Assembly (NCBI GenBank): GCA_964360175.1
Contig: CAYHUI010000002.1
Coordinates: forward strand, 1 to 60,028
DNA length: 60,028 nucleotides
Reading direction: 5' to 3'
Source of the DNA: Candidatus Woesearchaeota archaeon
GTDB taxonomy: Archaea; Nanobdellota; Nanobdellia; SCGC-AAA011-G17; CAYHUI01
Part shown: in pieces, positions 21,502-49,901 of the stretch
How the letters are laid out: every line of letters begins with the position of its first letter
Position numbering within the stretch: position 1 is the stretch's first letter
Made by a program: the position numbers and the translations under genes
The notes under the pieces: model-generated
Database searches by the model: none
Told to the model about the DNA's origin: nothing
The model's input: the letters and a program-made list of their open reading frames with translations, nothing else

Positions 21502-21512
21502 AATTTATCAAA

Positions 21513-26753: not shown

Positions 26754-27137
26754 ATGAATAATGGAAAATTATATGGAGAATCTTTGATTCGTTTGGCATT
26801 TCTAGAATCTTTGAAATTCCCAGAAAGATGGAGTAGAATCTCTTTAGAAAACTATTTCCAGCAACTAATTCTCGAAAAATTTATTATCAACTTCAATACT
26901 AAATATGGTTCAGATATAAAGTGGAGTGCTCAAATTTTAGCCAGTGAATTTCATAATTTAAGATATATTGAATCACTTCCAGATTATTTTTCAATCCAAA
27001 CCAGGTGGTCAACTTTAGAAAAAATTGTTTCAAAAGAAGAGATAGAAAAGGTTGTTGGAATTGTTTATAATGTGATAGGTTATTATTTTGACGCTATTAT
27101 AACTAGCCAGAATAATCCTTCTCAATTACCTTCTTAA
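26754..27137 (+). CDS. Hypothetical protein
   Basis: 127-aa ORF with no recognisable motif. Its 3' end overlaps the convergent XPF gene by about 35 nt. Confidence 0.4.
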   Translation: MNNGKLYGESLIRLAFLESLKFPERWSRISLENYFQQLILEKFIINFNTKYGSDIKWSAQILASEFHNLRYIESLPDYFSIQTRWSTLEKIVSKEEIEKVVGIVYNVIGYYFDAIITSQNNPSQLPS

Positions 27138-27768: not shown

Positions 27769-27769
27769 T

Positions 27770-32058: not shown

Positions 32059-32343
32059 ATGTTAAAAACAAAAAATATTGAAGATGTTTATGATATGGAT
32101 GTCTTTACAGACTCAGGTGAATTCTTTGGAGTAGTAGAGGAATGCGTATTAGTTAACAACAGGGTATCTGGTTGGAGAGTAAAGGCAACAAAGAATTCTT
32201 ATTTAAACAAAGTTTTGGGTGGAGCAAAAGGAGTTGTTGTACCTCATAACTTAGTTAAGTCTATTGGGGATGTAATGTTGATATCTAGGGCAGCTATTCC
32301 GACAGCTCAAGAAGCAGAAGAAGAAATGGTTGCTGAAGAATAA
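32059..32343 (+). CDS. PRC-barrel domain protein
   Basis: 94 aa. VYDMDVFTDSGEFFGVVEECVL...VVPHNLVKSIGDVMLI is a PRC-barrel pattern, followed by an acidic tail. Confidence 0.7.
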   Translation: MLKTKNIEDVYDMDVFTDSGEFFGVVEECVLVNNRVSGWRVKATKNSYLNKVLGGAKGVVVPHNLVKSIGDVMLISRAAIPTAQEAEEEMVAEE

Positions 32344-35283: not shown

Positions 35284-37581
35284 ATGGTATTGTTCGAAAA
35301 AAAAGTAGGTGTGGGGGAATTTGATATTGTAAGAGACGGTAATGAAGAGATTATGAAGATTAATTATGAAAACTATAATAGAACCCCTTCTGTTGAAGAC
35401 GATGAAAATTGCATGGCTTCTACGTTAGATAAATTGACTCAATCACCAGGTGTTACCAGAATCATATTTAATCAACGCAGAACTTATTCGTATGATTACG
35501 ATCAAACTTTAATATTAAAAGAAATCGCAAATATATTTAATTATCTGATAAAACAGAAAAAAGCATTAAGTTTTGGTTCAGATGTTTTGTCTGCCGAAAG
35601 TCTTACTTATTTTCCTTCTAGACAACAAGAATTACAATATTTAATTTCAGATTTGTTTAAAAAAGACCCTGTTGGTATGTATGTTGAGGTTAAAAGAATT
35701 CTAAGAGAGCAAAAAATTAGATTAAGTAAGATGAAAATTAAAGATCATGTTAAATGCCAACAATATTATATAGATTTACTGGAAGAAATTCTAAAATTAA
35801 TGGACAAAACAAAATTAATTAATACAGCTAAACCTTATCTAGATGGTTTAACTATAGGAGACAGATCTGTTTACAGATTAATATTCAGGCCTTCAATTAC
35901 ACCAGATTTTATTTATACTAGGTTAATATCAACACCACCTTTAACCGGCCAAGAATTAGATGCATATAATATAGATGAAGATACAGAAGTTATGATATTT
36001 AGAACTCCTGGTGATGTTAAAAACTTATATCATTTAATCCCCCCTGAATTTAAATTAGATGAAGATCAATACGAATTGCTAGATTTAGCTAGAAATGTCT
36101 TAGCATCTCACAAACCAAAAGCAGAAGAATTTATAGATCCGGAAAGAATGCGAACTAATTTCTTTAATATAGGTAAAGATCTGATAACAGAACTAGCTCA
36201 ACATAAAGGTTTTGATTTAGATTACGATGAGATAGAAAATTTAGCCAGAATTTTAGTTAGATATACCGTCGGTTTTGGTTTAATTGAGGTTCTGCTTAAA
36301 GATGAGAAAGTACAAGACATTACAGTTAATGGTCCTATAGGAGAGACTCCAATTTTTATTGTACATCAAGATTTCGGAGATTGTGTTACTAATATAATCC
36401 CGAGTCAAGAAGATGGTTTGAGCTGGGCAACTAAATTTAGATTATTAAGCGGTAGGCCTTTAGACGAAGCTAATCCTGTTTTAGATACTGAGTTGATTGT
36501 ACCTAATGCAAGAGCAAGAGTTGCGGTAATTTCTAGTCCTTTAAACCCAGAAGGTTTGGGTTATGCTTTACGCAGGCATAGAGATAAGCCATGGACTTTA
36601 CCTTTATTTATAAACAATAAAATGTTAACACCATTGGCCGCTGGTTTAATCTCTTTTTTAATAGATGGTTCAAGAACTTTTTTAGTAGCAGGTACAAGAA
36701 GTTCTGGGAAAACTTCTTTATTAGCAAGTTTAATTACAGAAATAATGGGGCGATATAGAATAGTAACTATGGAAGATACTTTAGAAATTCCTGTTAAGGC
36801 TTTTAGGGATTTAGGTTATAATATCCAACCTATGAAAGTAAGATCAGCTTTAACAACAGGGGGCACAGAATTAGCAGCTGAAGAAGGGATTAGAACAAGT
36901 TTAAGATTAGGGGATAGTTGTTTAATCGTCGGAGAAGTCAGATCCGTCGAGGCCAAAGCACTTTATGAGGCAATGAGGATAGGAGCACTAGCTAATGTTG
37001 TTGCTGGAACAATACATGGAGCAGACCCTTACGGGGTTTTTGATAGGGTTGTTAATGATTTGGGAGTTCCAAGAACAAGTTTTAAAGCAACAGATATTAT
37101 TATAGTAGCGAATCCAATTAAAACTGCAGATGGTTTGCATAGTGTAAGAAGAGTAACTCAAATAACAGAAGTTAGAAAACACTGGGAAAATGACCCATTA
37201 AGGGAAAATGGTTTTGTAGATTTAATGAAATACGATCCTAAACTAGATCAGCTAGTTCCTACTGAAGATTTGATTAATGGTGAAACTGAAATCATTAAAT
37301 CTATTGCAGGTAATATAAGAGAATTTGCAGGAAATTGGGATGCTGTTTGGAGTAATATCCAATTAAGAGCTGATATTAAAGAAACTTTAGTTAGTTATGC
37401 AAATAAAGCTGAAAGATTGGATTTGTTAGAAGCTGATTTCGTTGTAAAAAGCAATGATCAGTTCCATAGAATTTCTGATATGGTAAGAGAAGAAACCGGA
37501 AGTTTAGATAGTTCTAGAATCTTCTTAGAATGGCAAGATTGGTTAAAAAGAGAATTAAGGAAAAATATTATTAAAGTTTAG
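35284..37581 (+). CDS. Type II/IV secretion-family ATPase (FlaI/PilB/VirB11 class) with a long N-terminal extension
   Basis: 765 aa. Walker A AGTRSSGKTSLL, Walker B-like SCLIVGEVR, and the His-box region AGTIHGADP. The first roughly 330 aa have no motif I recognise. Confidence 0.85.
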   Translation: MVLFEKKVGVGEFDIVRDGNEEIMKINYENYNRTPSVEDDENCMASTLDKLTQSPGVTRIIFNQRRTYSYDYDQTLILKEIANIFNYLIKQKKALSFGSDVLSAESLTYFPSRQQELQYLISDLFKKDPVGMYVEVKRILREQKIRLSKMKIKDHVKCQQYYIDLLEEILKLMDKTKLINTAKPYLDGLTIGDRSVYRLIFRPSITPDFIYTRLISTPPLTGQELDAYNIDEDTEVMIFRTPGDVKNLYHLIPPEFKLDEDQYELLDLARNVLASHKPKAEEFIDPERMRTNFFNIGKDLITELAQHKGFDLDYDEIENLARILVRYTVGFGLIEVLLKDEKVQDITVNGPIGETPIFIVHQDFGDCVTNIIPSQEDGLSWATKFRLLSGRPLDEANPVLDTELIVPNARARVAVISSPLNPEGLGYALRRHRDKPWTLPLFINNKMLTPLAAGLISFLIDGSRTFLVAGTRSSGKTSLLASLITEIMGRYRIVTMEDTLEIPVKAFRDLGYNIQPMKVRSALTTGGTELAAEEGIRTSLRLGDSCLIVGEVRSVEAKALYEAMRIGALANVVAGTIHGADPYGVFDRVVNDLGVPRTSFKATDIIIVANPIKTADGLHSVRRVTQITEVRKHWENDPLRENGFVDLMKYDPKLDQLVPTEDLINGETEIIKSIAGNIREFAGNWDAVWSNIQLRADIKETLVSYANKAERLDLLEADFVVKSNDQFHRISDMVREETGSLDSSRIFLEWQDWLKRELRKNIIKV

Positions 37582-37651
37582 TTTAAATTTCCTTATTTGA
37601 AAAGACTTTGTTTCTTTTCAGAATTTTCTTTTAAAATAGAAAAGAATAAAT

Positions 37652-37924
37652 TTATTTTTTATAACCTTTTACCTCTTTATATAGTAGTCCAGAAGAAAGA
37701 ATAGAAAACATTAAACCTCCACCATAAAATCCCAATCCACCAGGTATAAGATTTCTTGAATATCTTTGTTGTTCATTTGTATGTATTCCAGCACATGCTT
37801 GCTGTATTCTATTAAGACCATTTTCTCTTGGTACTGTTAAATCAGCAAATCCAACAGTAGCTAGAAGTAATCCTCCCCAGACCAATTTTTCTAATTTATC
37901 CATTTTAATTTGTTTTTTTATCAT
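37652..37924 (-). CDS. Small two-TM membrane protein
   Basis: 90 aa with hydrophobic segments LVWGGLLLATVGF and GGLGFYGGGLMFSILSSGLL. 4-nt ATGA overlap with the upstream ORF. Confidence 0.45.
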   Translation of the reverse strand: MIKKQIKMDKLEKLVWGGLLLATVGFADLTVPRENGLNRIQQACAGIHTNEQQRYSRNLIPGGLGFYGGGLMFSILSSGLLYKEVKGYKK

Positions 37925-38184
37925 ATATGTTTTAATTGAACTTTTCCAACTAAACCTTCTACTTCTTCTCTATTAGCTGCTTCTAATATTGCTAATATAG
38001 GTATTCTACTTATAATTTCTCCTATTCTTGATCTTGGAACAGTTTTACCAGGACCAGAAATACGATGATGCTCATCAAAATGTTTTTCTGTAAATGTTCC
38101 GTTAGAATTTCTTCCATAAGTACTTTCTGCACACGTATAACCATTAACAACACAATAAGTTCTAACAGCCTTTACACGTCCCAT
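37921..38184 (-). CDS. Small hypothetical protein, possibly the frameshifted continuation of a gene starting at 38239
   Basis: 87-aa ORF without its own RBS. A 25-codon ORF (38239-38162, MVVKIHEFDVTPEIYYCKDGTCKGC) with a strong GGAGG (38247-38251, 7-nt spacer) overlaps it in another frame. Confidence 0.4.
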   Translation of the reverse strand: MGRVKAVRTYCVVNGYTCAESTYGRNSNGTFTEKHFDEHHRISGPGKTVPRSRIGEIISRIPILAILEAANREEVEGLVGKVQLKHI

Positions 38185-38304
38185 CTTTACAATAATAAAT
38201 TTCTGGTGTTACATCAAATTCATGAATTTTTACTACCATTTTTAAACCTCCTTAATATTTGTTACTACTTTATAATAAATAACTTATATATAAAGCTTTA
38301 GATT

Positions 38305-39165
38305 TCACTCTTTCAAATATTTTTTATGCATCTTTAAATATCTTCTAGAAAAATAATTAAAGAATTTATTTTCATCTTTTTGTAAAGCTTTATAATAATA
38401 TTTTCTTTTTTTGTATTCAGTTATCAACATAGGATATTTGTTATGCCATAAAATATAGTTCATTATTAATCTACCTATTCTACCATTACCATCTCCAAAA
38501 GGATGGATCATCTCAAATTTATAGTGTATTCTTGCTGCTAATTCAACTACATTCATATTTTTGTTTTTATTATAAAATTCAATTAACCCTTTCATTAGAG
38601 GTTTAACATCCTGCCAATCAGGAGCAATATAATCACCAACTCTAACTAAATATTCTCTAAATTTTCCAGCAATATCTTGCTTAGTATTCCTAAAAAGTAA
38701 TTCATGCCATTTTAAAATTAATTTATTATCTAATCTTTCTTTTTTCTCTAACATATCTAAAAAAACTTTTACATGAGACTCAGTTTCTTTTATATCCTTT
38801 AATGGTTTATTTGGAGCGATTTTATGTTCAATTAATTCTCTTGTTTCTTCTAAAGTAATTGTAGAACCTTCTATAGCATTTGTATTATAAGTGAAAGCTA
38901 TCGCAATTTGTTCTTTTAGTTTTTCTTTAACAGATTTTGGATACCTTTGCCATTCTTTTTGAAATCTATTTTTTATAGCATCAAATAATTCAAATAAACT
39001 AGCTTTATTACATTCTTCAAGAAATTTATTTTTTATATCTTCTATATTCAGCGGAATTTTTTTACCCAAATATCTTTCTTTAGTTATTACTTTACCTTGT
39101 TTTCTAAAAGAATGATGTAAATAGTAATACTCTTTATTTTGTTTTGTTCTTTTTAAAATTCTCAT
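38305..39165 (-). CDS. fic: Fic/DOC-family protein (AMPylase-type)
   Basis: 286 aa with the canonical HPFGDGNGRIGR (HxFx[DE]GNGRxxR) motif. Confidence 0.9.
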   Translation of the reverse strand: MRILKRTKQNKEYYYLHHSFRKQGKVITKERYLGKKIPLNIEDIKNKFLEECNKASLFELFDAIKNRFQKEWQRYPKSVKEKLKEQIAIAFTYNTNAIEGSTITLEETRELIEHKIAPNKPLKDIKETESHVKVFLDMLEKKERLDNKLILKWHELLFRNTKQDIAGKFREYLVRVGDYIAPDWQDVKPLMKGLIEFYNKNKNMNVVELAARIHYKFEMIHPFGDGNGRIGRLIMNYILWHNKYPMLITEYKKRKYYYKALQKDENKFFNYFSRRYLKMHKKYLKE

Positions 39166-39173
39166 AATATTTA

Positions 39174-39224
39174 TACACTTACAAAGTATTTAAATTTTCG
39201 CTTTTTGAGAAATTTGTAAGTGTA
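39174..39224. promoter_or_regulatory. 12-bp perfect inverted repeat (TACACTTACAAA / TTTGTAAGTGTA) bracketing a TTTAAATA box just upstream of fic
   Basis: The arms are at 39174-39185 and 39213-39224, with a 27-nt spacer containing a TATA-like TTTAAAT element about 30 nt from the fic ATG (39165). Confidence 0.45.
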
Positions 39225-39334
39225 ATTAATAGGTATTAGTTGCTAACAATAAAGTGTTTAAATAAACAGTAAAGAATTTGATGCAATAGTTGAATCTCTA
39301 GAGTTGATATCCAATAAAAAATAATATTAAAAAT

Positions 39335-39579
39335 TTATTTTAATTTTTCTTCAAGAACTTTCGGATCAAATTTTCTTTTTTGATTAGCTTTTTCGACATA
39401 ATCTGTGATTATCATAGATATATCAAAAAGATTAACTTCACTTCCATCTAATTTTACTTCTTTTACCTCTTTATATTTTATTTTATCTTTTCTCCCTCTA
39501 ATTAAAGATATATCTCTATTTACACCATATATAGTCTATACCTTGAATCATTTTGTAGAATCATATAAGATATTTCCAT
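39335..39579 (-). pseudogene. Possible decayed small gene (two pieces in different frames)
   Basis: My translation is MEISYMILQNDSRYRLYMV*, then in another frame TIYGVNRDISLIRGRKDKIKYKEVKEVKLDGSEVNLFDISMIITDYVEKANQKRKFDPKVLEEKLK*. The break is at an (AT)n run, and the total length is not a multiple of 3. Confidence 0.25.
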
Positions 39580-39704
39580 TTTTAATAATTATATTATGTT
39601 ACTCCTTTTAAGAAAAAAATTTATATATAAATCTTTCGATTTTTATTTAATAGAAAACTTTAATAAAAACAATATTTAAAATTAATATAAAAAAGAGGTG
39701 TATT

Positions 39705-41813
39705 ATGGAGATTAATGATCCAGAGATAAAAGATATTTTAAAAAAATATAAATCTAAATTAGAGAGTAATACATCTAAAAAGCTTGTTAGCGAATTTATC
39801 CCAGATCAAGCATTTACGAGGGAATATGAAAAATTCAGAGAAGAAGCTCTAACTCAAAATGTAAGTTCTTATGAACAATTTTGCAATGCTGCTGAAAAAA
39901 TTTTAAGAGTAAATCCTGGAAAGAAATTTGATGAACTTCAAAAAAATATAGAAATAGCTCATTTAAACGTAACCCCAATAGGAGCAGCTAGTTTTGCTAC
40001 ATTAATAGCTATATTTTTAGTCTTAATAGGCTTGATTATAGGAGCAGCTTCATTTTTCTTAGGAAATCCAATGATAATATTGCCTTTATTGTTGATATTA
40101 GGTGGTTTAATTATAGTAAAACCGTTGACAAATATTCCAAATTACATAGCAACTAGATGGAGATTGAAAGCAAGCAATCAAATGGTTTTATGTATTCTAT
40201 ATATTGTAATGTTTATGAGACATACTTCTAATCTAGAAAATGCAATTAAATTTTCTGCGCATCATATCAAAGAACCTTTATCTTTAGATTTAAGAAAAAT
40301 ATTTTGGGATATTGAAACTGGAAAATATTCTACATTAAAAGAAAGTTTAGATAATTATCTCGTGTCTTGGAGGGATTGGAATTTAGAATTTATAAATTCT
40401 TTTCATCTAATTGAGAGTAGTTTATACGAGCCTAATGAAACAAGAAGAGTTGAATTACTTGATAAATCATTAGAAGTTATTTTAGAAGGCATTTACGAAA
40501 GAATGTTGCATTATGCCCATGAATTAAACAATCCAATTACCATGTTGCATATGCTAGGTATTGTTTTGCCTATATTGGGTTTAGTTATATTTCCATTAAT
40601 GGGAAGCTTTTTAGGGGGTTTGATTAAATGGTGGCATTTGGCAATTTTATACAATATTTTATTACCTATTTTAGTTATTACTCTAGGAAATAATATTTTG
40701 ATAAAAAGACCAACTGGTTATGGAGAAAGTGAAATAGACTTAGAAGACAGAGGAAATCCATTTTTTGCTGCTTTTTTTATCGCATCTATATTTATTATAA
40801 TAGGTTTAATGCCTTTAATATTATATATTACAGATCCTGGATTTGACATCGAATTTGGGACTTTCGGGAAATTTTTAGATTATAAAGATAAAAGCGGACC
40901 TTATGGGGTTGGAGCTTTGATATTTAGTTTATTTATACCATTAGGATTAGCATTTGGAATAGGAACTTATTATAAATTAAAAACTAGGGGGCTAATGAAA
41001 CAAAGAAAAGAAACTAAAGATTTGGAAACAGAATTCGCCAGCAGTTTATTCCAATTAGGAAATAGAATAGGTGATGGAATCCCAGCAGAAATTGCATTTG
41101 AAAAAGTAGCAATTACCATGCATGGTACTCCATCTGGAAATTTTTTCAGCATAGTTTCAAGTAATATAAGGAATTTAGGTATGAACATAAAAGAAGCTGT
41201 TTTTAATAAGAAAAATGGAGCTATCCTCTATTACCCAAGCAGCTTAATTGAAAGTTCTATGAAAGTTCTAGTTGAAAGTTCTATGAAAGGGCCGCAGATA
41301 GTTGCAAGATCTTTAACTAGTATTTCTAATTATATTAAAAGAATTCATGAAGTGAATGAAAGATTAAGAGACTTATTGGCTGATATTGTTGCCAGTATGA
41401 AAGCCCAGATAAGTTTTTTAGCACCTGTAATCGCAGGTATTGTGGTAGGAATTGCTTCTATGATTGTAAATATAATTGGAAAACTAGGAGATATGCTAGC
41501 AAAAGTATCTGCTGAAGGAGAAGGTGCAGAAAGTCTTGGAAATTTAGGAGATATCGCATCTATTTTTAATATAAAAGATGTTATTCCGAGTTATTTTTTT
41601 CAATTAGTAGTAGGTATATATGTAGTAGAAATTGTTTTTATATTAACCAAATTATCCAATTCTATTGAGAACGGTGTTGATAGATTAGGTGAAGAAGATA
41701 GCTTAGCTAGAAATATGATTAGAAGTATTTTTATTTATATAATCGTCTCTTTAATTGTAATCTTGATATTTAATGCACTAGCTGCTACTATACTAACAGC
41801 AACTGAATTTTAA
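39705..41813 (+). CDS. Polytopic platform protein of the pilus/secretion system (GspF/TadC/FlaJ-like)
   Basis: 702 aa. Two soluble helical regions (AIKFSAHHIKEPLSLDLRKIFWDIETGK... and ETEFASSLFQLGNRIGDGIPAEIAFEKVA...) are each followed by TM bundles, the duplicated T2SS-F architecture. AGAGGTG RBS. Confidence 0.7.
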   Translation: MEINDPEIKDILKKYKSKLESNTSKKLVSEFIPDQAFTREYEKFREEALTQNVSSYEQFCNAAEKILRVNPGKKFDELQKNIEIAHLNVTPIGAASFATLIAIFLVLIGLIIGAASFFLGNPMIILPLLLILGGLIIVKPLTNIPNYIATRWRLKASNQMVLCILYIVMFMRHTSNLENAIKFSAHHIKEPLSLDLRKIFWDIETGKYSTLKESLDNYLVSWRDWNLEFINSFHLIESSLYEPNETRRVELLDKSLEVILEGIYERMLHYAHELNNPITMLHMLGIVLPILGLVIFPLMGSFLGGLIKWWHLAILYNILLPILVITLGNNILIKRPTGYGESEIDLEDRGNPFFAAFFIASIFIIIGLMPLILYITDPGFDIEFGTFGKFLDYKDKSGPYGVGALIFSLFIPLGLAFGIGTYYKLKTRGLMKQRKETKDLETEFASSLFQLGNRIGDGIPAEIAFEKVAITMHGTPSGNFFSIVSSNIRNLGMNIKEAVFNKKNGAILYYPSSLIESSMKVLVESSMKGPQIVARSLTSISNYIKRIHEVNERLRDLLADIVASMKAQISFLAPVIAGIVVGIASMIVNIIGKLGDMLAKVSAEGEGAESLGNLGDIASIFNIKDVIPSYFFQLVVGIYVVEIVFILTKLSNSIENGVDRLGEEDSLARNMIRSIFIYIIVSLIVILIFNALAATILTATEF

Positions 41814-41849
41814 AAATATTTATATAGTTAATAATCAAATTTTTTAGTA

Positions 41850-42002
41850 ATGGAAAAAAGAGGCTTAGTTTGGGATGAACTTGGTAAATTTATCATAGGT
41901 ATTGTTATTCTAATAATCCTAATATTGATAATCTATCTATTTAGGGATAAATTAAATCAACTCATTGAAACTTTTAAAAACATTGTAAGGTTTGGAAATT
42001 AA
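41850..42002 (+). CDS. Small (50 aa) membrane protein with a basic N-terminus (KRG) and one hydrophobic helix
   Basis: My translation is MEKRGLVWDELGKFIIGIVILIILILIIYLFRDKLNQLIETFKNIVRFGN. It is below the ORF-track cutoff, and its stop is 1 nt before the next start. Confidence 0.45.
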   Translation: MEKRGLVWDELGKFIIGIVILIILILIIYLFRDKLNQLIETFKNIVRFGN

Positions 42003-42003
42003 A

Positions 42004-42981
42004 ATGGTAGAATTTAATCAGATTTTATACGCTGTTCTTATGGTAGTAGTTGTACTTTTTGTAATAATATTTTTTACACCTGCTAAAAGTTTAGCTTATG
42101 GAATATTAGTAAAATTTGATATTATAACCCCAGCAATAGACTATTCAGAATTAACAGAAGAAACTGCATTAGCTGCATTTGAAAATATAACTAATATTTA
42201 TAACAATTGTATAGAAAGTAAAGATAATACTTGTACATGTACTAAAAAAACTTTAACAGGATTTGAGGAATTTCCCAGATTGAGATCAAATGATGTTATA
42301 AAAATTCAAGGTTCTGGTTTAAACACAATATTATGGTTTGAAAATAAAGAAGAAAAACAACTAGATCAATCTACTTTTAAAGGTGTTTTAAATTGTTTTA
42401 TGACAGCTAAAAAAGAAAACGGTGATTATAAAACTGTTATCGAAAAAAGTCCAGTGTTTATAAAATTTGATGATCCAAGAAGGATTTACATACAAAGACA
42501 AGCTAGACCAGAACCAGGAAATTATTTATATTTTATAGAAGGAGCTCCTGTTTTGTTTAAAGATGTTAATGGAAATATCTGCTTTGCAACAGAATTTTTT
42601 TTAACAGGTGGTATTACAAGCACTACTAAAACAGAGGCTAAAAATTATTTAAACAGCTTAAATTTTTGTTTTCCAAGCAATAAAGACGATGTAAAAAATG
42701 AATTAAACAGACTTAAAGGTTTTATCAACACCTGCAAAAATAATAACATTTGCGGGGAATTTATACTGAATTTACCAAACGATTATACATTGTTACATAA
42801 AAACAGTGGTTTTATTGGAGTTTATTATCTTGAATTAAGCAGTTTTAATTTAGCTTACAGCATTACAGAATTAGGAAGCTATTGTTATAATGATAATGAA
42901 ATTCAAAAAAAATATGTTAATGGAGATACTTTAAAATTGGAAAAAAAAGACAACAAGATTTGTTTAAATTTAGTTGAGTAA
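42004..42981 (+). CDS. N-terminally anchored, cysteine-rich (10 Cys) extracellular protein of the pilus locus
   Basis: MVEFNQILYAVLMVVVVLFVIIFF anchor. I prefer the ATG at 42004 over the TTG at 41992. Confidence 0.6.
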   Translation: MVEFNQILYAVLMVVVVLFVIIFFTPAKSLAYGILVKFDIITPAIDYSELTEETALAAFENITNIYNNCIESKDNTCTCTKKTLTGFEEFPRLRSNDVIKIQGSGLNTILWFENKEEKQLDQSTFKGVLNCFMTAKKENGDYKTVIEKSPVFIKFDDPRRIYIQRQARPEPGNYLYFIEGAPVLFKDVNGNICFATEFFLTGGITSTTKTEAKNYLNSLNFCFPSNKDDVKNELNRLKGFINTCKNNNICGEFILNLPNDYTLLHKNSGFIGVYYLELSSFNLAYSITELGSYCYNDNEIQKKYVNGDTLKLEKKDNKICLNLVE

Positions 42982-43043
42982 TCTAAAGCTACCAAAAACC
43001 TTAAATAGTAATAAATAATTAAAATTTAAAAAGAGGAATTAAT

Positions 43044-43415
43044 ATGTTCAATAAAAAAAGAGGCCAGGGACTTTCTTTAAATGTTATAGTAATCACAATT
43101 TTAGTAATATTAGTCTTAGTAGTAGTTGCAGTTTTCTTTACAGGTGGTTTTGCTAACTTAGGAAGTCTTATCAGCAGATTATATGGATCCCAATTAGTTA
43201 GCGTTTCACAAGCTAAACTTCAATGTGATTCTTGGTGCAATCAATATGAATCTACAGAGAGTGAATTATGGAAAAATAAATGGTGTAATCTTGATGAGAA
43301 TTCTAATTTCGATCTAGATACAGACGGAGATAAAAAAGTTGATAGACCAGACGAAACTTGTAATGGTAATGTAATCAATTCACAATGTCCGGCTATAGGA
43401 AGTTGTGTTTCTTAA
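43044..43415 (+). CDS. Prepilin-like protein (class III signal peptide), 6 Cys
   Basis: MFNKKRG/QGLSLNVIVITILVILVLVVVAVFF: basic residues, Gly, then Gln and a hydrophobic helix, as in archaeal type IV pilins. AGAGGA RBS. Confidence 0.7.
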   Translation: MFNKKRGQGLSLNVIVITILVILVLVVVAVFFTGGFANLGSLISRLYGSQLVSVSQAKLQCDSWCNQYESTESELWKNKWCNLDENSNFDLDTDGDKKVDRPDETCNGNVINSQCPAIGSCVS

Positions 43416-43437
43416 TTTTTATTTCTTATAATCTAAA

Positions 43438-43617
43438 ATGATATTTAAAAACGGCCAAGGTATGCCTACTGAAACAATAATTATAATCCTCTTAGCAATA
43501 TTAGTTTTTGTCATCGTGTTAGTTATATTTCTTACACAAGGTGGTGATATATCAAAAGGTTTTAGTGGAATAATAAAGTCTGTAATTAATATATCTAAAA
43601 GTACTAAAATTGGTTAA
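43438..43617 (+). CDS. Small prepilin-like protein (59 aa)
   Basis: My translation is MIFKNG/QGMPTETIIIILLAILVFVIVLVIFLTQGGDISKGFSGIIKSVINISKSTKIG. It is below the ORF-track cutoff. Confidence 0.55.
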   Translation: MIFKNGQGMPTETIIIILLAILVFVIVLVIFLTQGGDISKGFSGIIKSVINISKSTKIG

Positions 43618-43618
43618 A

Positions 43619-44122
43619 ATGAATAAAAAAGCTGCAGTTAGATTAAGTTTAGCATTTATGATAGGAGTTCTTTTTACTGTAGTGGGTTTATTCGTTTTCT
43701 ACAATATATCAAACACATTTCTGGGTTTTTTAATAAAAGGCCAAGCAGTCTGTGATGATAATTTAGATTATTATAATAATATAGTTAATATTATCCAAAA
43801 TTTAGAGCCTCAAAAAGCTGTTAAAGAAGAACTTGTTGATATTAGAAATAATTGTGCTTTAATTGCATTTAGTTCAAAAAAAGAATCTTTTGTTTCAAAA
43901 CCAGATAAATGTTTCCAGAAAAGTTGTTTATGTATGTGTTATATAGGTGCAAAAATAGGCCAAAGCGATTGCGAAAAAGCTAAATACTGCGAATCATTCG
44001 AAGGTATAGAAGAGATTAACGGTGCTCAAAAAATAAATGGATTTGAAGAACAAGTTTATATAAATGAACTTAATAAATTAGAAATAAGTAGAATAGATAA
44101 TACTATTCAAATTTTAATTTAA
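43619..44122 (+). CDS. Prepilin-like / N-terminally anchored protein, 8 Cys
   Basis: MNKKA/AVRLSLAFMIGVLFTVVGLFVF. The ATG at 43619 is 1 nt after the preceding stop. Confidence 0.6.
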   Translation: MNKKAAVRLSLAFMIGVLFTVVGLFVFYNISNTFLGFLIKGQAVCDDNLDYYNNIVNIIQNLEPQKAVKEELVDIRNNCALIAFSSKKESFVSKPDKCFQKSCLCMCYIGAKIGQSDCEKAKYCESFEGIEEINGAQKINGFEEQVYINELNKLEISRIDNTIQILI

Positions 44123-44129
44123 AAATAAA

Positions 44130-44531
44130 ATGGAAGATAAACAAATAATTTGGACTTTTTATTTGCTTGTTGTAATGTTCGCAATGATTAGTTTATTTAT
44201 ATTTGTTAGAAATTCAGCTGATGATGAATTATTCAGACAAAAGGTTTTAGCTTTAGATTTATCTTTTTTAGAAGACGCAATAATTTCCAGTCCTGGAGAT
44301 ATAAAAATTAATTATGATCTAAAAGGAAATTATTTAGAAGGGTTTAACATAAAAACGGAAAAATGCAATGTTTTTATCCAATTAGAAGGTGATTTAATTT
44401 ATGATGTAAATGAAAAATGTTTTGATGATGAATTTTTAGAGAGGGATTCTGATATAATTTTATCAAATCCAGAAAAAATCAAATTTAAAAAAGAAAATAA
44501 TAAATTAATAATATTCGATAAAAATGAATAA
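44130..44531 (+). CDS. N-terminally anchored protein of the pilus locus, 2 Cys
   Basis: 133 aa with the MEDKQIIWTFYLLVVMFAMISLFIFV anchor. Confidence 0.55.
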   Translation: MEDKQIIWTFYLLVVMFAMISLFIFVRNSADDELFRQKVLALDLSFLEDAIISSPGDIKINYDLKGNYLEGFNIKTEKCNVFIQLEGDLIYDVNEKCFDDEFLERDSDIILSNPEKIKFKKENNKLIIFDKNE

Positions 44532-44640
44532 AAAAGCCATTTCAGAAGGTGTAAGATTTTTAGCAATACTCATCTTAATCATTTTATTTATCATTGGTGT
44601 TTGGTTAATAATAAACAGGGTGACAAATCTTGTTAAATAA
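44524..44640 (+). CDS. Very small (38 aa) prepilin-like membrane protein
   Basis: My translation is MNKKA/ISEGVRFLAILILIILFIIGVWLIINRVTNLVK. It overlaps both neighbours by a few nt. Confidence 0.4.
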   Translation: MNKKAISEGVRFLAILILIILFIIGVWLIINRVTNLVK

Positions 44641-45475
44641 AAAAGGACTTCATGTAGAAACTACTGTTGTTTTAATATTATTTTTACTTGTTGTTGTTTT
44701 TCTCGGAGTAGCTCAGTCTAATATATTTAAAACTACTACTTCTGCTGTAGATAGGGAAGCTTGTGCAGATAGTATTATCTTTAAAGCGAGATCTAAATTA
44801 GGATTAATATCTTCACCTGTAGATATAAAATGCAATACTAATAAAATAGAAATAAAAACTAAAAATTTAGATGAAATTAAAAAAACAATAGCAGAAGAAT
44901 TTGCATTATGCGCTAAACAATTTCATATAGGACAAATAGATTTTTTATCAGAGTTAGATTTTCATCCAGGTAAAGATGTTTTTTGTTTTATTTGTTCCAA
45001 CATAGAATTCTCAGAAGAGGTCAAGGAAAAACATCCAAAAATTGAAATTCGAGAATATCTTAATACTGAAAAAATAATAAATGGAAAAACAGTAGCACAT
45101 TTCATTTCTAATGATCCAGAATTTAAATTTACTGGAGAACAAGTAGCTAGTATTGACACCAGTAAAAATTTATATGCTTTATTTTACGCTCTTAAATATA
45201 ATACCTGGGGAGAAAAAATTGGATGGTCGACTGCAACAGCAGGTGGGGTAACAATAGCATTTTCAATTACAGGGGGAACTTTTGGTTTATTGGGAGGGCT
45301 TCCTGGTGCAATTAGTGGAGCAGTTTTAGGAGCTAAAATCGGAGCAGTTGTAGGCACTATAGCAGGAATTGGTGAGATTGCTACTGATACCGGAGTTAAA
45401 CCAGAATACCTTCCAGGTTTTTTATTAGTTTCTGGCGAAGGCGTTGAAAAAGAATGTACTGAATTAATAGCTTAA
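44630..45475 (+). CDS. Prepilin-like protein with a C-terminal glycine-zipper segment, 6 Cys
   Basis: TTG start gives MLNKKG/LHVETTVVLILFLLVVVFLGV. C-terminal GGVTIAFSITGGTFGLLGGLPGAISGAVLGAKIGAVVGTIAGIGEIA. Confidence 0.55.
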   Translation: MLNKKGLHVETTVVLILFLLVVVFLGVAQSNIFKTTTSAVDREACADSIIFKARSKLGLISSPVDIKCNTNKIEIKTKNLDEIKKTIAEEFALCAKQFHIGQIDFLSELDFHPGKDVFCFICSNIEFSEEVKEKHPKIEIREYLNTEKIINGKTVAHFISNDPEFKFTGEQVASIDTSKNLYALFYALKYNTWGEKIGWSTATAGGVTIAFSITGGTFGLLGGLPGAISGAVLGAKIGAVVGTIAGIGEIATDTGVKPEYLPGFLLVSGEGVEKECTELIA

Positions 45476-45513
45476 TGATAATATTTATATAGATTATTTA
45501 CAAATTCTAATAT

Positions 45514-46005
45514 GTGAAAAAAGGACAGTTAGGTATAGGTTCAGAAATTGTTCGTATGTTTGCAAATATAGTTTTACTTGTTATTGTAGTTATTTTTATA
45601 GCTGTTGTAGTAGACGTACATTTAAATAGAGAAATTAAGACCAATGAACTTGAAAGTCATTTATTAACTACAAGATTAATTTATTCACCCAATTGTTTTT
45701 TATACCAAAATGAAATAAGAAAATACCCCGGGATAATAGATTTAGATAAATTTGATAAAAATATAATAGAAAGATGTTTAATCAATAAAGAAAATACAGG
45801 TTTTATAATAGATCTTAAAGAAATTAACGGAACTTCTATCAAAACAATTAATATCAATGAAGACATATCTGATTTTTTAAAATTTTGTAATGTTAAAAGA
45901 AAAAGATTTGATTGTTATTTTGATGAAAAATATATTTTATTAGAAGAAAATAATGAGATTAAACCAGCTTTACTAAATATAAGTTTAGCTATAAAAAATG
46001 AATAA
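45514..46005 (+). CDS. Prepilin-like protein, 4 Cys
   Basis: GTG start gives MKKG/QLGIGSEIVRMFANIVLLVIVVIFIAVVV. Confidence 0.55.
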   Translation: MKKGQLGIGSEIVRMFANIVLLVIVVIFIAVVVDVHLNREIKTNELESHLLTTRLIYSPNCFLYQNEIRKYPGIIDLDKFDKNIIERCLINKENTGFIIDLKEINGTSIKTININEDISDFLKFCNVKRKRFDCYFDEKYILLEENNEIKPALLNISLAIKNE

Positions 46006-46525
46006 AAAAAGTCAATCTGAAATAATATTAAATGTATTTGCTTTAATAGTATTGTTTATTGTTATATTGATCTTTTGGTTTTTATTAGCTTTTGAAGTAG
46101 CTAAACCTGGTATAGAAAAACAAGTAATTAATGCTCAAGAAAATAACGAAGGTAATTTGATATTAATAAATTATTTAAGAACACCAGTTGAAGTTGAAAT
46201 TGATAAAAAAAATAAAACTATTAATATCGCAGATTTAATCATTTTATCTATACAAAAAAATAATTATGAAATTTTAGATAAAAAAACTAAAGAATTATTT
46301 AATCTAAATAACAATTATTGGTATATTTCCTTATGGAAAGATGATGGTTTAATATACGAATTTAATAGAGAAAACTTCCAACCAAGATTAGGTATAACAG
46401 AAGTAAAAGTTGAAACTTTTATTCCAAATTACAACAAAGAATTAATTAAAGTTTCTATGTTTGTACAAGAAGGTGTAGAAATAACTGAAATCCAAGAAGC
46501 ATTAAAAGAAGCTGGGGCCGTATAA
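45998..46525 (+). CDS. Prepilin-like / N-terminally anchored protein, no Cys
   Basis: MNKKS/QSEIILNVFALIVLFIVILIFWF. 8-nt overlap with the preceding gene. Confidence 0.55.
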   Translation: MNKKSQSEIILNVFALIVLFIVILIFWFLLAFEVAKPGIEKQVINAQENNEGNLILINYLRTPVEVEIDKKNKTINIADLIILSIQKNNYEILDKKTKELFNLNNNYWYISLWKDDGLIYEFNRENFQPRLGITEVKVETFIPNYNKELIKVSMFVQEGVEITEIQEALKEAGAV

Positions 46526-46526
46526 A

Positions 46527-47285
46527 ATGAATAAAAAAGGATTTTTCACAACAACATTAGTTTTAATGTTTGTAATTTTGATGGGTTATACAGCTGTTAT
46601 TTTTTTGAATTCAGAAAAAAAATCTAATGAAGTAACTATCGGTAAAATTCAAACTGATGTTATAAATGTTTTTCAAGATGCAGAAAAAACTTTATTTTAT
46701 TTAGATCAAAGTGCAAAATATTCAGCTTATAAAACTACTGAAGAAATAACATTAAAAGGAATTTCCAGCAATTGTGGTATAGAAGAAAATTATATTTTAT
46801 GGAAATCTGATAGGAAAGAATGTTATCCTGATGAAGAAACTTTAAAAAAATCTTTTATTGAATTATTTAGTAAAAATTTAGATATCTACTTAGAAGAATA
46901 TAATAAAATTAATAAAAATGATTTAACTTTAAATAATTATAATTTAGAACTAGAAGAAACTAATGAATTAAAAATTACTGGAAATGCAAAAGAAGATTTT
47001 AAAATCAAACAACAAGAAATAGATTATTCTAATATGCCTAATTTTATAACTAAAATAGATTATAATTTTACAGATCATTTAGATATAAGTAAAGACGTTA
47101 AAGAATTAATCAATAAATGCAATAATGATTTAACATGTTGGAAGTCTGATTCTAAAAGTATAAATTGGAAAATAAAACAAAAAGGAAACCTTTTTATGTT
47201 TGATGTAACCACAAATAGAAAAACCATATTTTCAGAAGAAAACATAATTATCAAATTCGGAATAAACTTTAATCAATTAATATAA
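46527..47285 (+). CDS. Prepilin-like protein, 4 Cys
   Basis: MNKKG/FFTTTLVLMFVILMGYTAVIF. It starts 1 nt after the preceding stop. Confidence 0.6.
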   Translation: MNKKGFFTTTLVLMFVILMGYTAVIFLNSEKKSNEVTIGKIQTDVINVFQDAEKTLFYLDQSAKYSAYKTTEEITLKGISSNCGIEENYILWKSDRKECYPDEETLKKSFIELFSKNLDIYLEEYNKINKNDLTLNNYNLELEETNELKITGNAKEDFKIKQQEIDYSNMPNFITKIDYNFTDHLDISKDVKELINKCNNDLTCWKSDSKSINWKIKQKGNLFMFDVTTNRKTIFSEENIIIKFGINFNQLI

Positions 47286-47286
47286 A

Positions 47287-48294
47287 ATGTTAAAAATAAG
47301 TTATGAAGAGATTATTGAAAGGATAATAAAAGAAAAAGGAGTAAGTAGAGAAGAAGTAGAAGATAAGATTAATAAGAGAATTAAACAACTCCAAGACTTA
47401 ATAAGTAGAGACGGAGCTGCACATATAGTAGCTAACGAATATAGTGTTAAATTATTTGAAGATTTAGAATTAAGAAAATTAAAAATTAAAAACTTAATTC
47501 CTGGAATGAATTCTGTTAATATTACAGGTAAAGTTTTAAGTATAAATGGAGTTAAAGAATTTAAAACCAGTAAAAGAGAAGGAAAACTTGCCTCTCTTTT
47601 GATAGGAGATGAAACTGGGACTATAAAAGTTGTTCTATGGGATATCAATTTAATCAAAGAAATAGAAAATAATAGTGTTAAAGAAAATGATATAATCAAA
47701 ATTAAAAATGCATATTCCAGAGATAACAATGGTTTCTTAGAATTACATATGGGAAATAAATCTCAATTATCAATAAATCCAGCAGGAGAAATTATTAAAG
47801 AAGTATCAACACAAACTCAAAGGAGGCTTAATAGAAAAACTATTGAAGAATTAAAAGAAAATGAAAATGTAGAAATTTTAGGTAGTGTTGTACAAATGTT
47901 CGAACCAAATTTTTATACAGTTTGTCCAGAATGTGGTAAAAGAACTTTGTTAGAAGAAACAGACTATATCTGTAAGGAACATGGAAAAGTTAATGAAAGT
48001 TTCGCTCCTGTTTTAAACATTTTTTTTGATGACGGAACTTCTAATATAAGGATTGTTTTCTTTAGAGATCTAGTAGAAAAATTATTAGGTCTGGATAGAA
48101 AAAAAGTTCTAGATTTAAAAGAAAATTTAGCTGATTTTGAAAATATAAAAAAAGAAATTTTAGGTAAACAAATTGCTATTTCTGGCAGGGTTGTTAAAAA
48201 TACGATGTTCGATAGATTAGAGTTAATTGCAAATGATGTCAAAGAAGTAAATGCTGTTGAAGTAGCAGAAGAACTTTTTAAAGATTTAGAATAA
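47287..48294 (+). CDS. RPA-like single-stranded-DNA-binding protein (OB folds plus zinc ribbon)
   Basis: 335 aa. N-terminal helical module ...ISRDGAAHIVANEY, an OB-fold pattern (VNITGKVLSINGVKEFKTSKREGKLASLLIGDETGTIKVVLWD), and zinc ribbon CPECGKR...CKEHG inside a second OB fold. Confidence 0.7.
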   Translation: MLKISYEEIIERIIKEKGVSREEVEDKINKRIKQLQDLISRDGAAHIVANEYSVKLFEDLELRKLKIKNLIPGMNSVNITGKVLSINGVKEFKTSKREGKLASLLIGDETGTIKVVLWDINLIKEIENNSVKENDIIKIKNAYSRDNNGFLELHMGNKSQLSINPAGEIIKEVSTQTQRRLNRKTIEELKENENVEILGSVVQMFEPNFYTVCPECGKRTLLEETDYICKEHGKVNESFAPVLNIFFDDGTSNIRIVFFRDLVEKLLGLDRKKVLDLKENLADFENIKKEILGKQIAISGRVVKNTMFDRLELIANDVKEVNAVEVAEELFKDLE

Positions 48295-49143: not shown

Positions 49144-49542
49144 TTAATATCCCTCAACTTTAATACCTTTTATCCTTTCAAAATGCTGTTTATTTCTTGT
49201 AACTATTGTATTAATACCATTAGCTAAAGCAATTCCAGCTGTTAAACAATCAGTTGTTTGAATTTTACTTCCCTTTTTTTCTAATTCAACAGCCATTTTT
49301 GCTGATTTAAAAGTTGATTCTCCAGCTAAAGGGAGTACATTTAAAATATTTATAAAATCATTAAATATTAATATTTCTTTATTTAGATCTATATCTTTTC
49401 TTTTATAAATTCCAAATAAAACTTCAAATATATTTATTTCTGTAGTAAAAATCTTTTCATTTTCTATATCTTTAGCTTTATTAATAGCTCCTAAATCATT
49501 ATTCAAAAAATCAATTAAAAAAGTTGTATCTAAAAGCCTCAT
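49144..49542 (-). CDS. vapC: PIN-domain ribonuclease toxin (VapC-type)
   Basis: 132 aa. MRLLDTTFLIDFL N-terminal acidic motif, TTDCLTAGIAL and IVTRNKQHF motifs. 4-nt overlap with the upstream antitoxin. Confidence 0.8.
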   Translation of the reverse strand: MRLLDTTFLIDFLNNDLGAINKAKDIENEKIFTTEINIFEVLFGIYKRKDIDLNKEILIFNDFINILNVLPLAGESTFKSAKMAVELEKKGSKIQTTDCLTAGIALANGINTIVTRNKQHFERIKGIKVEGY

Positions 49543-49796
49543 TTTTCTTTTCCACTAATATTTTTTGATCTTTCTGTAATTTCTTTAGTAAATTTTTCTC
49601 TCATTTTTTTAATATCGTTCTTCATATCATCGATACTTTTATTACTTAAATGACTCCAAGCTCCAGCAAAATTACTTAATTTTTTTTCTTTTATAATCTC
49701 CCTTCTAATAACATCAGAAAAACTTTCTCCATCCATCTTATGTCTTTTTAAAATTTCATAAGCATCTTTCATTATAGTAATAGTTTTAGTTGTCAT
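49539..49796 (-). CDS. Antitoxin of the archaeal DUF217/VapB-like family
   Basis: TITIMKDAYEILKRHKMDGESFSDVIRREI matches the 'kTI.v.devy..L...K...ESFSdvi..L' pattern of PIN-associated archaeal antitoxins. There are three in-frame ATGs (49808, 49802, 49796), so the start is uncertain. Confidence 0.65.
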   Translation of the reverse strand: MTTKTITIMKDAYEILKRHKMDGESFSDVIRREIIKEKKLSNFAGAWSHLSNKSIDDMKNDIKKMREKFTKEITERSKNISGKEK

Positions 49797-49901
49797 ACAC
49801 ATACACATACATGTACATTTATAAATCTTTTGGTTAAAATTTCGTAAGATTTACAAAAAGGTTATAAGAAAATTTTTAAATATATTAATTAAATTAATAA
49901 T

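Follow-up and report, generated by a model that had tools for sequence, protein, structure and literature searches.

We analysed a window of 60,028 nucleotides from Candidatus Woesearchaeota archaeon (GenBank assembly GCA_964360175.1, contig CAYHUI010000002.1, positions 1 to 60,028; GC ~26%), in which an initial annotation, made from the letters alone, had marked a type-IV-pilus-like surface-filament locus at positions 35284 to 48294. The locus holds a gene for a secretion ATPase, a gene for a polytopic membrane protein, referred to here as the platform, and a row of small co-directional open reading frames (ORFs), p38 to p329 (Table 1). The closest relatives of the window proteins come from metagenome-assembled genomes labelled Woesearchaeota, Nanoarchaeota or Nanoarchaeia, and the window sequence recurs in assembly Hain_H51_01um (ENA ERZ1292627), apparently from groundwater on a 0.1-µm filter. 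Scans of the window for tRNA genes and Rfam families returned none. The Pfam scans covered ten of the eleven small ORFs and the flanks of the locus, while the NCBIfam scans covered seven small ORFs, the ATPase and the platform.

The 765-residue ATPase had been described as having a normal Walker A/B core, and this was confirmed. Residues 446-610 match the T2SS-E profile PF00437 (T2SSE; E 2.3e-13, 50 bits against a cut-off of 24.9), and all four motifs are intact: Walker A (residues 470-477, GTRSSGKT), the Asp box (494-502), Walker B (547-553) and the His box (576-579). The best NCBIfam match is FlaI (NF058587; residues 228-661, E 1.9e-35, 122.6 bits, cut-off 550), followed by the TadA model (TIGR03819; E 2.4e-33, 115.8 bits, cut-off 373) and the BasE model (NF053672; E 1.6e-15, 56.9 bits, cut-off 1000). 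The nearest solved relative is Archaeoglobus GspE (afGspE, 2oap; E 5.8e-29), ahead of CpaF (2e-20) and FlaI (9.8e-16). Judged by these scores, the protein is a member of the GspE/FlaI/TadA class and an equivalog of neither FlaI nor TadA. The best 120 orthologs listed are full length with 61-67% identity, and the databases searched label ATPase orthologs variously as FlaI ('archaeal flagellar protein FlaI'), TadA or VirB11.

The FlaI labels, the rank of FlaI as best NCBIfam match and the report of fla genes in Woesearchaeota by KEGG annotation (PMC11606122) could be taken to indicate a reduced archaellum used for swimming. We regard this as highly improbable, as the FlaI score lies far under the equivalog cut-off, the closest solved relative is afGspE and not FlaI, and neither the proteins scanned with Pfam and NCBIfam nor the precomputed Pfam matches of the orthologous loci revealed a FlaH/KaiC-like ATPase, FlaF/G, FlaC/D/E or an archaellin domain; the earlier statement that the system is not an archaellum therefore stands. 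Extra N-terminal domains are, in addition, typical of non-archaellum ATPases. Passages of a recent preprint (bioRxiv 10.64898/2026.04.22.720090) support this, noting subsystem-specific variable terminal domains on archaeal type IV filament (TFF) ATPases, so that having an extension is nothing unusual in itself.

The extension of the window ATPase is smaller than the roughly 330 residues first proposed. Because residues 226-658 align with residues 32-442 of the 511-residue afGspE, the extra N-terminal part comprises ~195-225 residues; the C-terminus is only a few tens of residues longer. The other part of the claim, that this region resembles nothing recognised, held up. Residues 1-235 were modelled with AlphaFold2 and 34 orthologs (pLDDT, the predicted local distance difference test, 84.3). 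In the model, residues 13-90 form a small alpha/beta lobe and residues 104-185 a bundle of helices. Foldseek found nothing in the PDB that matched this model significantly (lowest E 0.15, to Dicer fragments), so the fold was left unassigned. With 38-51% identity among orthologs the region is conserved, and the model presents it as a lineage-specific, confidently folded domain without a recognisable structural relative. As a separate observation, six ATPase orthologs of ~1260-1280 residues (P0135, P0169, P0188, P0208, P0214 and P0218) contain an intein (PF14528 and PF14890); in P0135, the sole one inspected, it interrupts the Asp-box region immediately past the residue equivalent to ~500 of the window ATPase.

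The 702-residue platform has about nine transmembrane segments by hydropathy and had been called GspF/TadC/FlaJ-like, with the T2SS-F profile proposed as a check. The window protein itself fails PF00482. This failure is overturned at the level of the family, for which a profile search of 1.84 billion representatives found 1,310 members. From 45 diverse members, which are 23-56% identical to the window platform and match the family profile at E 1e-96 or better, 23 match PF00482 (best E 1.1e-15) and four match Spore_III_AB, which we take to have a GspF-like fold. The family profile also matches the cytoplasmic domain of EpsF (2vma, E 0.0021). A profile built from close orthologs matched only G-protein-coupled receptors in the PDB; these matches were dismissed as spurious and the broader alignment was needed. 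The best 120 homologs from a word search are 53-65% identical, and those with names are 'hypothetical protein' entries with no Pfam domain.

The AlphaFold2 model of the platform (pLDDT 80.3, predicted template-modelling score 0.76) has two cytoplasmic helical domains with transmembrane segments between them. Its top Foldseek match is the PilC chain of the type IVa pilus machine model 3jc8 (3jc8_Ca), and the cytoplasmic domains of EpsF, OutF and PilC were matched with a probability of 0.99-1.00, target-normalised TM-scores of 0.66-0.76 and a root mean square deviation of ~3 Å; the corresponding E-values are non-significant because of the length mismatch. An internal duplication was not detectable at the sequence level with hhalign. 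The remote and transitive evidence from family profiles and models places the platform as a very divergent member of the GspF/PilC/TadC/FlaJ (T2SSF) superfamily, in agreement with its first assignment. The ATPase and platform had also been described as oversized. They are indeed long, but this is the norm of the lineage, which holds thousands of full-length orthologs (53-67% identity among the best-scoring ones listed).

Table 1. Features of the locus and its surroundings in the window, followed by proteins of related loci (locus:position). The last column gives the orthologs that carry a class-III-like motif; a slash marks the putative cleavage site.
Feature	Position	Strand	Basis or remark	Motif in orthologs
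Secretion ATPase, GspE/FlaI/TadA class, 765 aa	35284..37581	+	PF00437 and motifs	
ATPase extra N-terminal part, residues ~1-225	35284-35958			
ATPase Walker A	36691-36714			
ATPase Asp box	36763-36789			
ATPase Walker B	36922-36942			
ATPase His box	37009-37020			
Platform, polytopic, 702 aa, predicted divergent GspF/PilC/TadC/FlaJ (T2SSF)	39705..41813	+	family-level remote homology; AlphaFold2 and Foldseek	
p50, helix-only pilin-like, MEKRG/LVWDE..., 50 aa	41850..42002	+	class-III-like motif; overlaps next gene by 11 nt	56/58
p329, Cys-rich, N-terminal transmembrane segment, no K-G motif, 329 aa (325 from ATG 42004)	41992..42981	+	ORF and transmembrane segment	3/9
p123, MFNKKRG/QGLSLNVIV..., 123 aa	43044..43415	+	motif	55/55
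p59, helix-only p123 paralog, MIFKNG/QGMPTE..., 59 aa	43438..43617	+	aligns with p123 N-terminus; overlaps next gene by 8 nt	21/28
p170, Cys-rich pilin-like, MNKKA/AV..., 170 aa	43610..44122	+	motif; probable start ATG 43619	32/39
p133, N-terminal transmembrane segment, no motif in this genome, 133 aa	44130..44531	+	ORF and transmembrane segment	24/40
p38, helix-only, MNKKA/ISEG..., 38 aa	44524..44640	+	motif; overlaps p281 by 11 nt	
p281, K-K-G motif and N-terminal transmembrane segment, 281 aa	44630..45475	+	motif, alignment	55/57
p163, pilin-like, VKKG/QLG..., 163 aa	45514..46005	+	motif	31/39
p175, pilin-like, MNKKS/QSE..., 175 aa	45998..46525	+	motif	30/32
p252, pilin-like, MNKKG/FF..., 252 aa, final gene of cluster	46527..47285	+	motif	35/38
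RPA-like gene, OB-fold and Rep_fac-A_C	47287-48294		PF01336 E 5.6e-12; Rep_fac-A_C E 7.9e-7	
337-aa gene	51737-52669		70% identical to that of relatives	
Two coiled-coil proteins, 232 and 133 aa	34107..35181	-	conserved neighbours, divergent from ATPase	
Three tandem paralogs with five transmembrane segments, 187, 192 and 173 aa	32418..34089	+	conserved neighbours	
94-aa ORF	~32059-32343		conserved upstream neighbour; position matches L002/L003 gene flagged PRC-barrel (weak)	
TraB/PrgY/GumN-family gene and overlapping protein with seven transmembrane segments	30587-31985		conserved upstream neighbours; TraB family E 2e-16	
Fic-domain gene	38305-39165	-	PF02661, E 2.2e-23; between ATPase and platform	
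Two small ORFs, 90 and 87 aa		-	companions of Fic gene; between ATPase and platform	
17-nt direct repeat, exact	37666 and 39460			
46-nt direct repeat, 80% identical	38260-38305 and 39597-39642			
132-aa PIN/VapC-like ORF and overlapping 89-aa ORF before it	49144-49808	-	by eye	
ERCC4/XPF nuclease with HhH (234 aa) and DEAD/Helicase_C helicase (503 aa)	27103-29281	-	adjoining, separate genes	
p170 ortholog with SLT	L053:10357-11952		50.7 bits	
p170 ortholog with SLT	L021:15183-17231			
p170 ortholog with SLT and Amidase_2 together	L009:14560-16242		Amidase_2 region by phmmer	
p170 ortholog with M23	L031:14354-15475		33 bits	
p170 ortholog, M15-like	L003:15415-17139		23.3 bits, under Pfam cut-off 27	
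p170 ortholog, M15-like	L022:5757-7418		phmmer likeness to L003 module only	
p170 ortholog, M15-like, and p252 ortholog with Amidase_2	L036:17223-18842 and 20220-21776		phmmer likeness to L003 module only (M15-like); 87.5 bits (Amidase_2)	
p252 ortholog with SLT	L066:18791-20032			
Unassigned protein at same place with SLT	L064:10333-12072		55.2 bits	
FlaK-like protein	L068:21245-22114	-		
FlaK-like protein	L028:21302-22084	-		

Downstream of the platform, twelve pilin-like ORFs had been counted; we find eleven in 41850-47285 (50, 329, 123, 59, 170, 133, 38, 281, 163, 175 and 252 residues), and no gap left between them is long enough to hold another. Their spacing, with overlaps, 1-nt gaps and a few gaps of tens of nt, is as described, and an N-terminal hydrophobic helix, expected from the reported basic leader plus helix, is present in all eleven. 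A class III signal peptide consists of a short basic leader, a small residue at position -1 and then a hydrophobic helix of about 20 residues. We scored this with a strict rule, [KR][GAS] in the first 14 residues and an uncharged 17-residue hydrophobic window no more than 13 residues further on. Eight of the eleven ORFs passed, the KNG variant of p59 makes nine with [KRN][GAS], and the nine motif strings quoted initially are all present at the genes named for them. None of the 157 other window ORFs of at least 38 residues passed, although 30 have an N-terminal hydrophobic segment. The enrichment of class-III-like motifs in the locus is far beyond chance.

A word-seeded search with p123 gave only four proteins, so homologs of the small proteins were gathered via synteny, using hidden Markov models (HMMs) built from the window proteins and run against 83 loci. 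The small proteins form ~10 distinct ortholog families, each ORF representing its own family, in near-constant order across dozens of Woesearchaeota genomes. Within these families the motif is widely retained (Table 1), with G at position -1 in ~80% of orthologs and A in most of the others. Gln is the commonest +1 residue in the p123, p59, p163 and p175 families, so the Gln noticed after Gly in several window subunits is conserved. Small-protein orthologs are at most 35% identical or BLAST-undetectable, in contrast to the 53-67% identity of the motor proteins among the best-scoring orthologs listed. A conserved motor with fast-diverging subunits is a contrast typical of pilins. The number of class-III-like ORFs between the platform and the RPA-like gene has a median of nine and ranges from 4 to 11 in 29 loci; the pilin complement, first judged unusually large, is thus the lineage norm, made of fixed families with no local expansion.

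The missing matches to curated pilin families and the lack of a peptidase in the window would also be compatible with ordinary uncleaved signal-anchor proteins that merely adjoin a secretion ATPase. We consider this barely credible, since dozens of genomes keep the K/R-G/A/S motif at a fixed position in eight to nine families, in proteins that otherwise diverge to 35% identity or less. The absence of the pattern from the background ORFs, the tight packing of the genes downstream of the ATPase and platform, and the presence of a FlaK-like peptidase in relatives likewise speak against it.

Among the individual subunits, p123 has the best conserved N-terminus (NKKG/Q.LSLNT...) and a small C-terminal head, whose six conserved Cys and DxDxDG-type loop (DLDTDGDKKVD) suggest disulfides and a Ca-binding site; it is the likely major subunit. 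Of the p50 orthologs, 56 of 58 have [KR][GA] before the transmembrane helix, with D or E at +1, and p50 itself resembles Flp1_like (PF16982) weakly (E 0.002, 18 bits, cut-off 33.5; E 5.5e-6 for an ortholog). The fast-evolving 'slot 2' protein p329 has only eight detectable orthologs, and the protein at its position in the AR20 genome carries a KKA motif; the AR20 ortholog of p133 similarly has a motif (MHKKG/D). The smallest ORF, p38, is absent from public gene calls. Among 54 orthologous cases, 31 have a short ORF with a class-III-like motif that terminates no more than 40 nt from where p281 begins. In most genomes p281 is the first gene past the platform, whereas here the p38/p281 pair lies between p133 and p163. 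With a conserved Cys-containing ectodomain and a C-terminal hydrophobic segment of glycine-zipper type, p281 is probably a membrane-retained assembly or anchor component rather than a filament subunit. We also noted three pairs in which a helix-only ORF of 50, 59 or 38 residues overlaps a larger gene with an N-terminal transmembrane segment by 8-11 nt (41850/41992, 43438/43610 and 44524/44630), an arrangement that suggests translationally coupled short and long partners.

Motif scans, tblastn and HMM searches found no A24 prepilin peptidase in the 60-kb window, as the initial annotation had reported. In five relatives (L013, L016, L028, L034 and L068) a FlaK-like polytopic protein is encoded near the locus, ~3 kb past the YdjM gene on the opposite strand. 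The two motifs of the catalytic Asp residues are present in this protein (SDIKTKEIPN and GGGDSK/GGGDAK), which matches FlaK (3s0x, E 6.6e-7). The window retains the intervening 337-residue gene without the peptidase. In one study flaK was assigned by KEGG annotation in most of its Woesearchaeota metagenome-assembled genomes (PMC11606122), and an A24 peptidase elsewhere in this genome is plausible. The three paralogs with five transmembrane segments upstream of the ATPase, and a 246-residue protein with seven, were considered as hidden prepilin peptidases and rejected, as they have neither conserved Asp nor GxGD motifs.

The system is widespread. In a species-level survey of one genome per GTDB species, at least 599 pattern matches were obtained, and at least 576 of the species representatives encode a platform relative. 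Of these, 80 loci were retrieved; their labels are Woesearchaeota, Nanoarchaeia, Nanoarchaeota or 'archaeon', apart from two uncultured Methanosarcinales, and they include the closed genomes CP066683.1 and CP010426.1 (AR20). The synteny comparison that had been proposed revealed a near-fixed gene order. Upstream it usually runs from the gene for the protein with seven transmembrane segments and TraB (both on the minus strand) through a small PRC-like gene and the three five-segment paralogs to the two coiled-coil genes (minus strand); the core then follows as ATPase, platform, p281, p50, (p329), p123, p59, p170, p133, p163, p175 and p252, with the RPA-like gene and YdjM after it. The gap between ATPase and platform is normally -20 to +25 nt (33 of 43 loci).

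The genes flanking the core were considered as possible accessories. The coiled-coil pair is present in 44 of 47 loci with an upstream flank, matches only generic coiled-coil Pfam families (with FlaC_arch in two members at E 0.0013) and may possibly supply cytoplasmic accessory or regulatory subunits. The triplet of five-segment paralogs, complete in 44 of the 47 loci, shares the N-terminal motif G.FD..LPFLL.F...FAILEKT.ILG and has no Pfam or PDB relative; it too is listed as a possible accessory. Synteny as a sign of function was downgraded, as the RPA-like gene, YdjM, the 337-residue protein and TraB are equally syntenic. One distant platform homolog lacks adjoining coiled-coil and five-segment genes, and distant homologs mostly lie on short contigs with uninformative context. 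Orthologs of the seven-segment protein match Peptidase_M50 weakly.

The RPA-like gene begins 1 nt past p252, lies -13 to +6 nt from it in 16 of 28 relatives and is found downstream in 30 of 43 loci. This proximity would fit a competence-type pilus for DNA uptake, in which captured DNA is handed to the RPA-like protein and provides nucleotides for a biosynthesis-poor cell. Such a role appears very unlikely, given that the genes past RPA (YdjM and the 337-residue protein) are equally syntenic, so that synteny is general here and no evidence of function, and that we saw neither a ComEC-like channel nor DprA or a nuclease among the genes of the locus; the RPA-like protein, moreover, presumably resembles ordinary archaeal RPA. 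We take it as probably a housekeeping neighbour outside the system. The end coordinate of the marked span takes in this gene, which probably does not belong to the locus.

In this genome a Fic block of ~2.1 kb (37652-39476) separates the ATPase from the platform. It contains the Fic-domain gene with two small companions, and an exact 17-nt direct repeat, CTTTTACCTCTTTATAT, occurs at its two sides (Table 1). None of the three genes occurs in any of 83 related loci, and the block resembles a small mobile or toxin islet that has entered the operon of this genome. A second direct repeat, of 46 nt and with a TTTATATATAAA box, has one of its two copies ~60 nt upstream of the platform start, and may represent a duplicated promoter from which the platform is again expressed despite the insertion. 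Two further gene pairs were noted outside the locus: one just downstream is a probable toxin-antitoxin pair, and an adjoining nuclease and helicase further upstream resemble a split Hef-like arrangement.

Relatives of two subunits carry enzymatic modules. A Pfam scan of the 70 largest proteins of the pilin-like rows gave SLT in six, Amidase_2, Peptidase_M23 and Peptidase_M15 in two each, and LysM in one. Murein hydrolase modules occur in at least 9 of ~41 non-redundant loci, about one fifth of the relatives, a lower bound as only the largest proteins were scanned. The modules sit at the C-terminus of orthologs of p170 or p252 or, in L064, of an unassigned protein (Table 1), and the module proteins, except that of L064, start with a basic leader ending in KKG, KRG, KKA or VKG followed by a hydrophobic helix. 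The window p170 and p252 are short forms without modules, and the SLT HMM finds nothing in the window. Passages of two papers note that some Woesearchaeota, AR20 among them, have lytic transglycosylases, and propose predation on bacteria (PMC9723730; PMC12352652). The searched passages of both papers make no mention of pili, and those of PMC12352652 of neither pilins nor class III signals. From their position in the proteins, the modules would make the minor-subunit positions a display scaffold, and their presence on orthologous subunits points to contact with bacterial cell walls, with attack on these walls as a hypothesis.

Enzyme domains on class-III-type N-termini also bring to mind a short membrane-proximal structure, like the pseudopilus of the type II secretion system (T2SS) or the Bas bindosome, that pushes or anchors enzymes and binding modules through the surface layer. 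A fixed order of ~10 distinct single-copy subunit families, like GspG-K, without duplicated major pilins would suit this arrangement, as would the C-terminal membrane segment of p281, the p123 DxDxDG loop, which we take to resemble the Ca site of GspG-type pseudopilins, and the BasE match of the ATPase. The BasE match is nevertheless much weaker than those to FlaI or TadA, and in most genomes, that of the window among them, a cargo enzyme cannot be recognised in the locus. We therefore think a display and secretion structure of this kind unlikely, if less so than the archaellum or DNA-uptake readings.

We consider it very likely that the locus encodes a TFF machine, and probable, with somewhat less assurance, that it represents a lineage-wide Woesearchaeota TFF machine whose filament has an attachment or contact role. 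Of the features of such a machine, the ATPase, the platform and class-III-like subunits are recognised here, the platform by remote homology only and the subunits at the motif level. In the proposed mechanism, a FlaK-like A24 peptidase encoded elsewhere in the genome would strip the leaders, and the hexameric ATPase would dock on the cytoplasmic domains of the platform and drive extraction of the subunits from the membrane and their polymerisation via the N-terminal helices. The Q at +1, the six Cys and the DxDxDG loop would fit p123 as the major subunit. The helix-only p50, p59 and p38 and the larger p170, p163, p175 and p252 would act as minor, priming or tip subunits, the minor positions serving for display, and p281 would stay in the membrane.

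Several observations weigh against this TFF machine reading. The window platform itself has no Pfam (including PF00482), NCBIfam or PDB sequence match, and none of the eleven small proteins scored above threshold with the curated pilin and archaellin models of Pfam and NCBIfam. The p123 family profile matched no solved pilin in the PDB, only two archaellins whose E values of 1.4-1.6 are not significant. The predicted signals are less canonical than the archaeal class III signals of textbooks, because many subunits have 5-12 mixed or polar residues between the putative cleavage site and the uncharged core. The second hydrophobic segment of p281 would hinder its extraction into a filament. The window has no A24 peptidase gene, and the Fic insertion splits the locus, so that translational coupling of ATPase and platform is lost here. 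Filament formation and leader cleavage are predicted from the genes, and a short pseudopilus would fit as well, as no major pilin is amplified in the fixed set of ten different subunits.

Given that the hydrolase modules are absent from the subunits of this genome, adhesion or host attachment is the plausible default reading here. Across the lineage, the filament's job is probably contact with other cells, bacteria included, because p170 and p252 orthologs carry murein hydrolase modules. A further, tentative proposal, which we hold to be rather less likely than its negation, is that the machine is the organelle by which Woesearchaeota engage murein-walled bacteria, with p170 and p252 as exchangeable tip slots, so that it attaches to the wall and locally breaches it as a 'pilus-borne drill'. 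If true, this would provide a concrete and conserved apparatus for the predation or 'vampirism' proposed for Woesearchaeota in passages of PMC9723730. Its lineage-specific adaptations would then be the divergent platform, the ATPase N-domain and perhaps the coiled-coil and five-segment neighbours.

Few DPANN archaea are as widespread as the Woesearchaeota, of which to our knowledge none is well cultivated; their partners are not known. One TFF system in hundreds of species would provide a defined surface apparatus to look for by cryo-electron tomography and in metaproteomes, and the murein modules on orthologs turn a vague 'host attachment' into a testable hypothesis on bacterial targets. The finding would also extend the 'modular pilin' concept, so far bacterial, to archaea. 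Profiles made from these families would let TFF pipelines that rely on PF00482-like models detect a system they possibly miss now.

Compared with the known systems, the ATPase of the locus is closest in NCBIfam to FlaI, yet falls well short of its cut-off and is ~250 residues longer than the 513-residue FlaI. The platform is presumably ~130-150 residues longer than FlaJ, and the two cytoplasmic helical domains of its model are presumably FlaJ-like. With archaeal type IV pili and other TFF systems (Haloferax PilB/PilC/PilA, Sulfolobus Aap and Methanococcus Epd) the locus shares the triad of ATPase, platform and class III subunits, and with Epd-type pilins the Gln at +1 in several subunits. It differs from them in a single 702-residue platform that escapes PF00482, an ATPase N-domain without a structural relative, ~10 conserved subunit families in fixed order and no peptidase in the locus. 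Epd-type system 1, in the classification of PMC4858521, has two platform (TadC-like) genes where this locus has one, and the small proteins do not match PF04021 in Pfam. That 2016 TFF census (Makarova et al. 2016, PMC4858521) did not cover Woesearchaeota, and the passages searched of bioRxiv 10.64898/2026.04.22.720090 do not name them.

Tad/Flp systems resemble the locus in that the ATPase matches CpaF and the TadA model and the helix-only subunits of 38-59 residues are similar to Flp-type pilins. The TadA cut-off is missed (115.8 against 373), a single platform replaces TadB and TadC, Flp1_like stays below its cut-off, and no secretin or other Tad accessory proteins are found here. The T2SS pseudopilus and Sulfolobus Bas (BasEF/ABC) likewise have a fixed set of different pilin-like proteins, and class-III-type N-termini on proteins with enzymatic or binding modules. 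Unlike in the T2SS, no secretin or GspL/M was seen, and unlike in Bas, the BasE model is matched with 56.9 bits against a cut-off of 1000; in contrast to both, the cargo modules of the relatives are fused to the pilin-like proteins themselves. By these specific criteria the system, as judged from its genes, is not an archaellum, Tad/Flp, Epd-type system 1 or a Bas bindosome.

The modular pilins PilB and PilC of Streptococcus sanguinis (PMC8179133) are similarly built, from a pilin N-terminus and a grafted module that is probably displayed at the tip. Such pilins are widespread in bacteria, including Candidatus phyla such as Magasanikbacteria and Falkowbacteria (Raynaud et al. 2021, PMC8179133), and the words archaea and peptidoglycan are absent from that paper. 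Here, by contrast, the modules are murein hydrolases, the host is archaeal, and the modules occur in relatives only, the window p170 and p252 being unmodular. Our literature search found no paper that describes the Woesearchaeal system seen here. The locus is best described as a clade-wide archaeal type IV filament machine, of a kind that is already known and in a Woesearchaeal version that is new.

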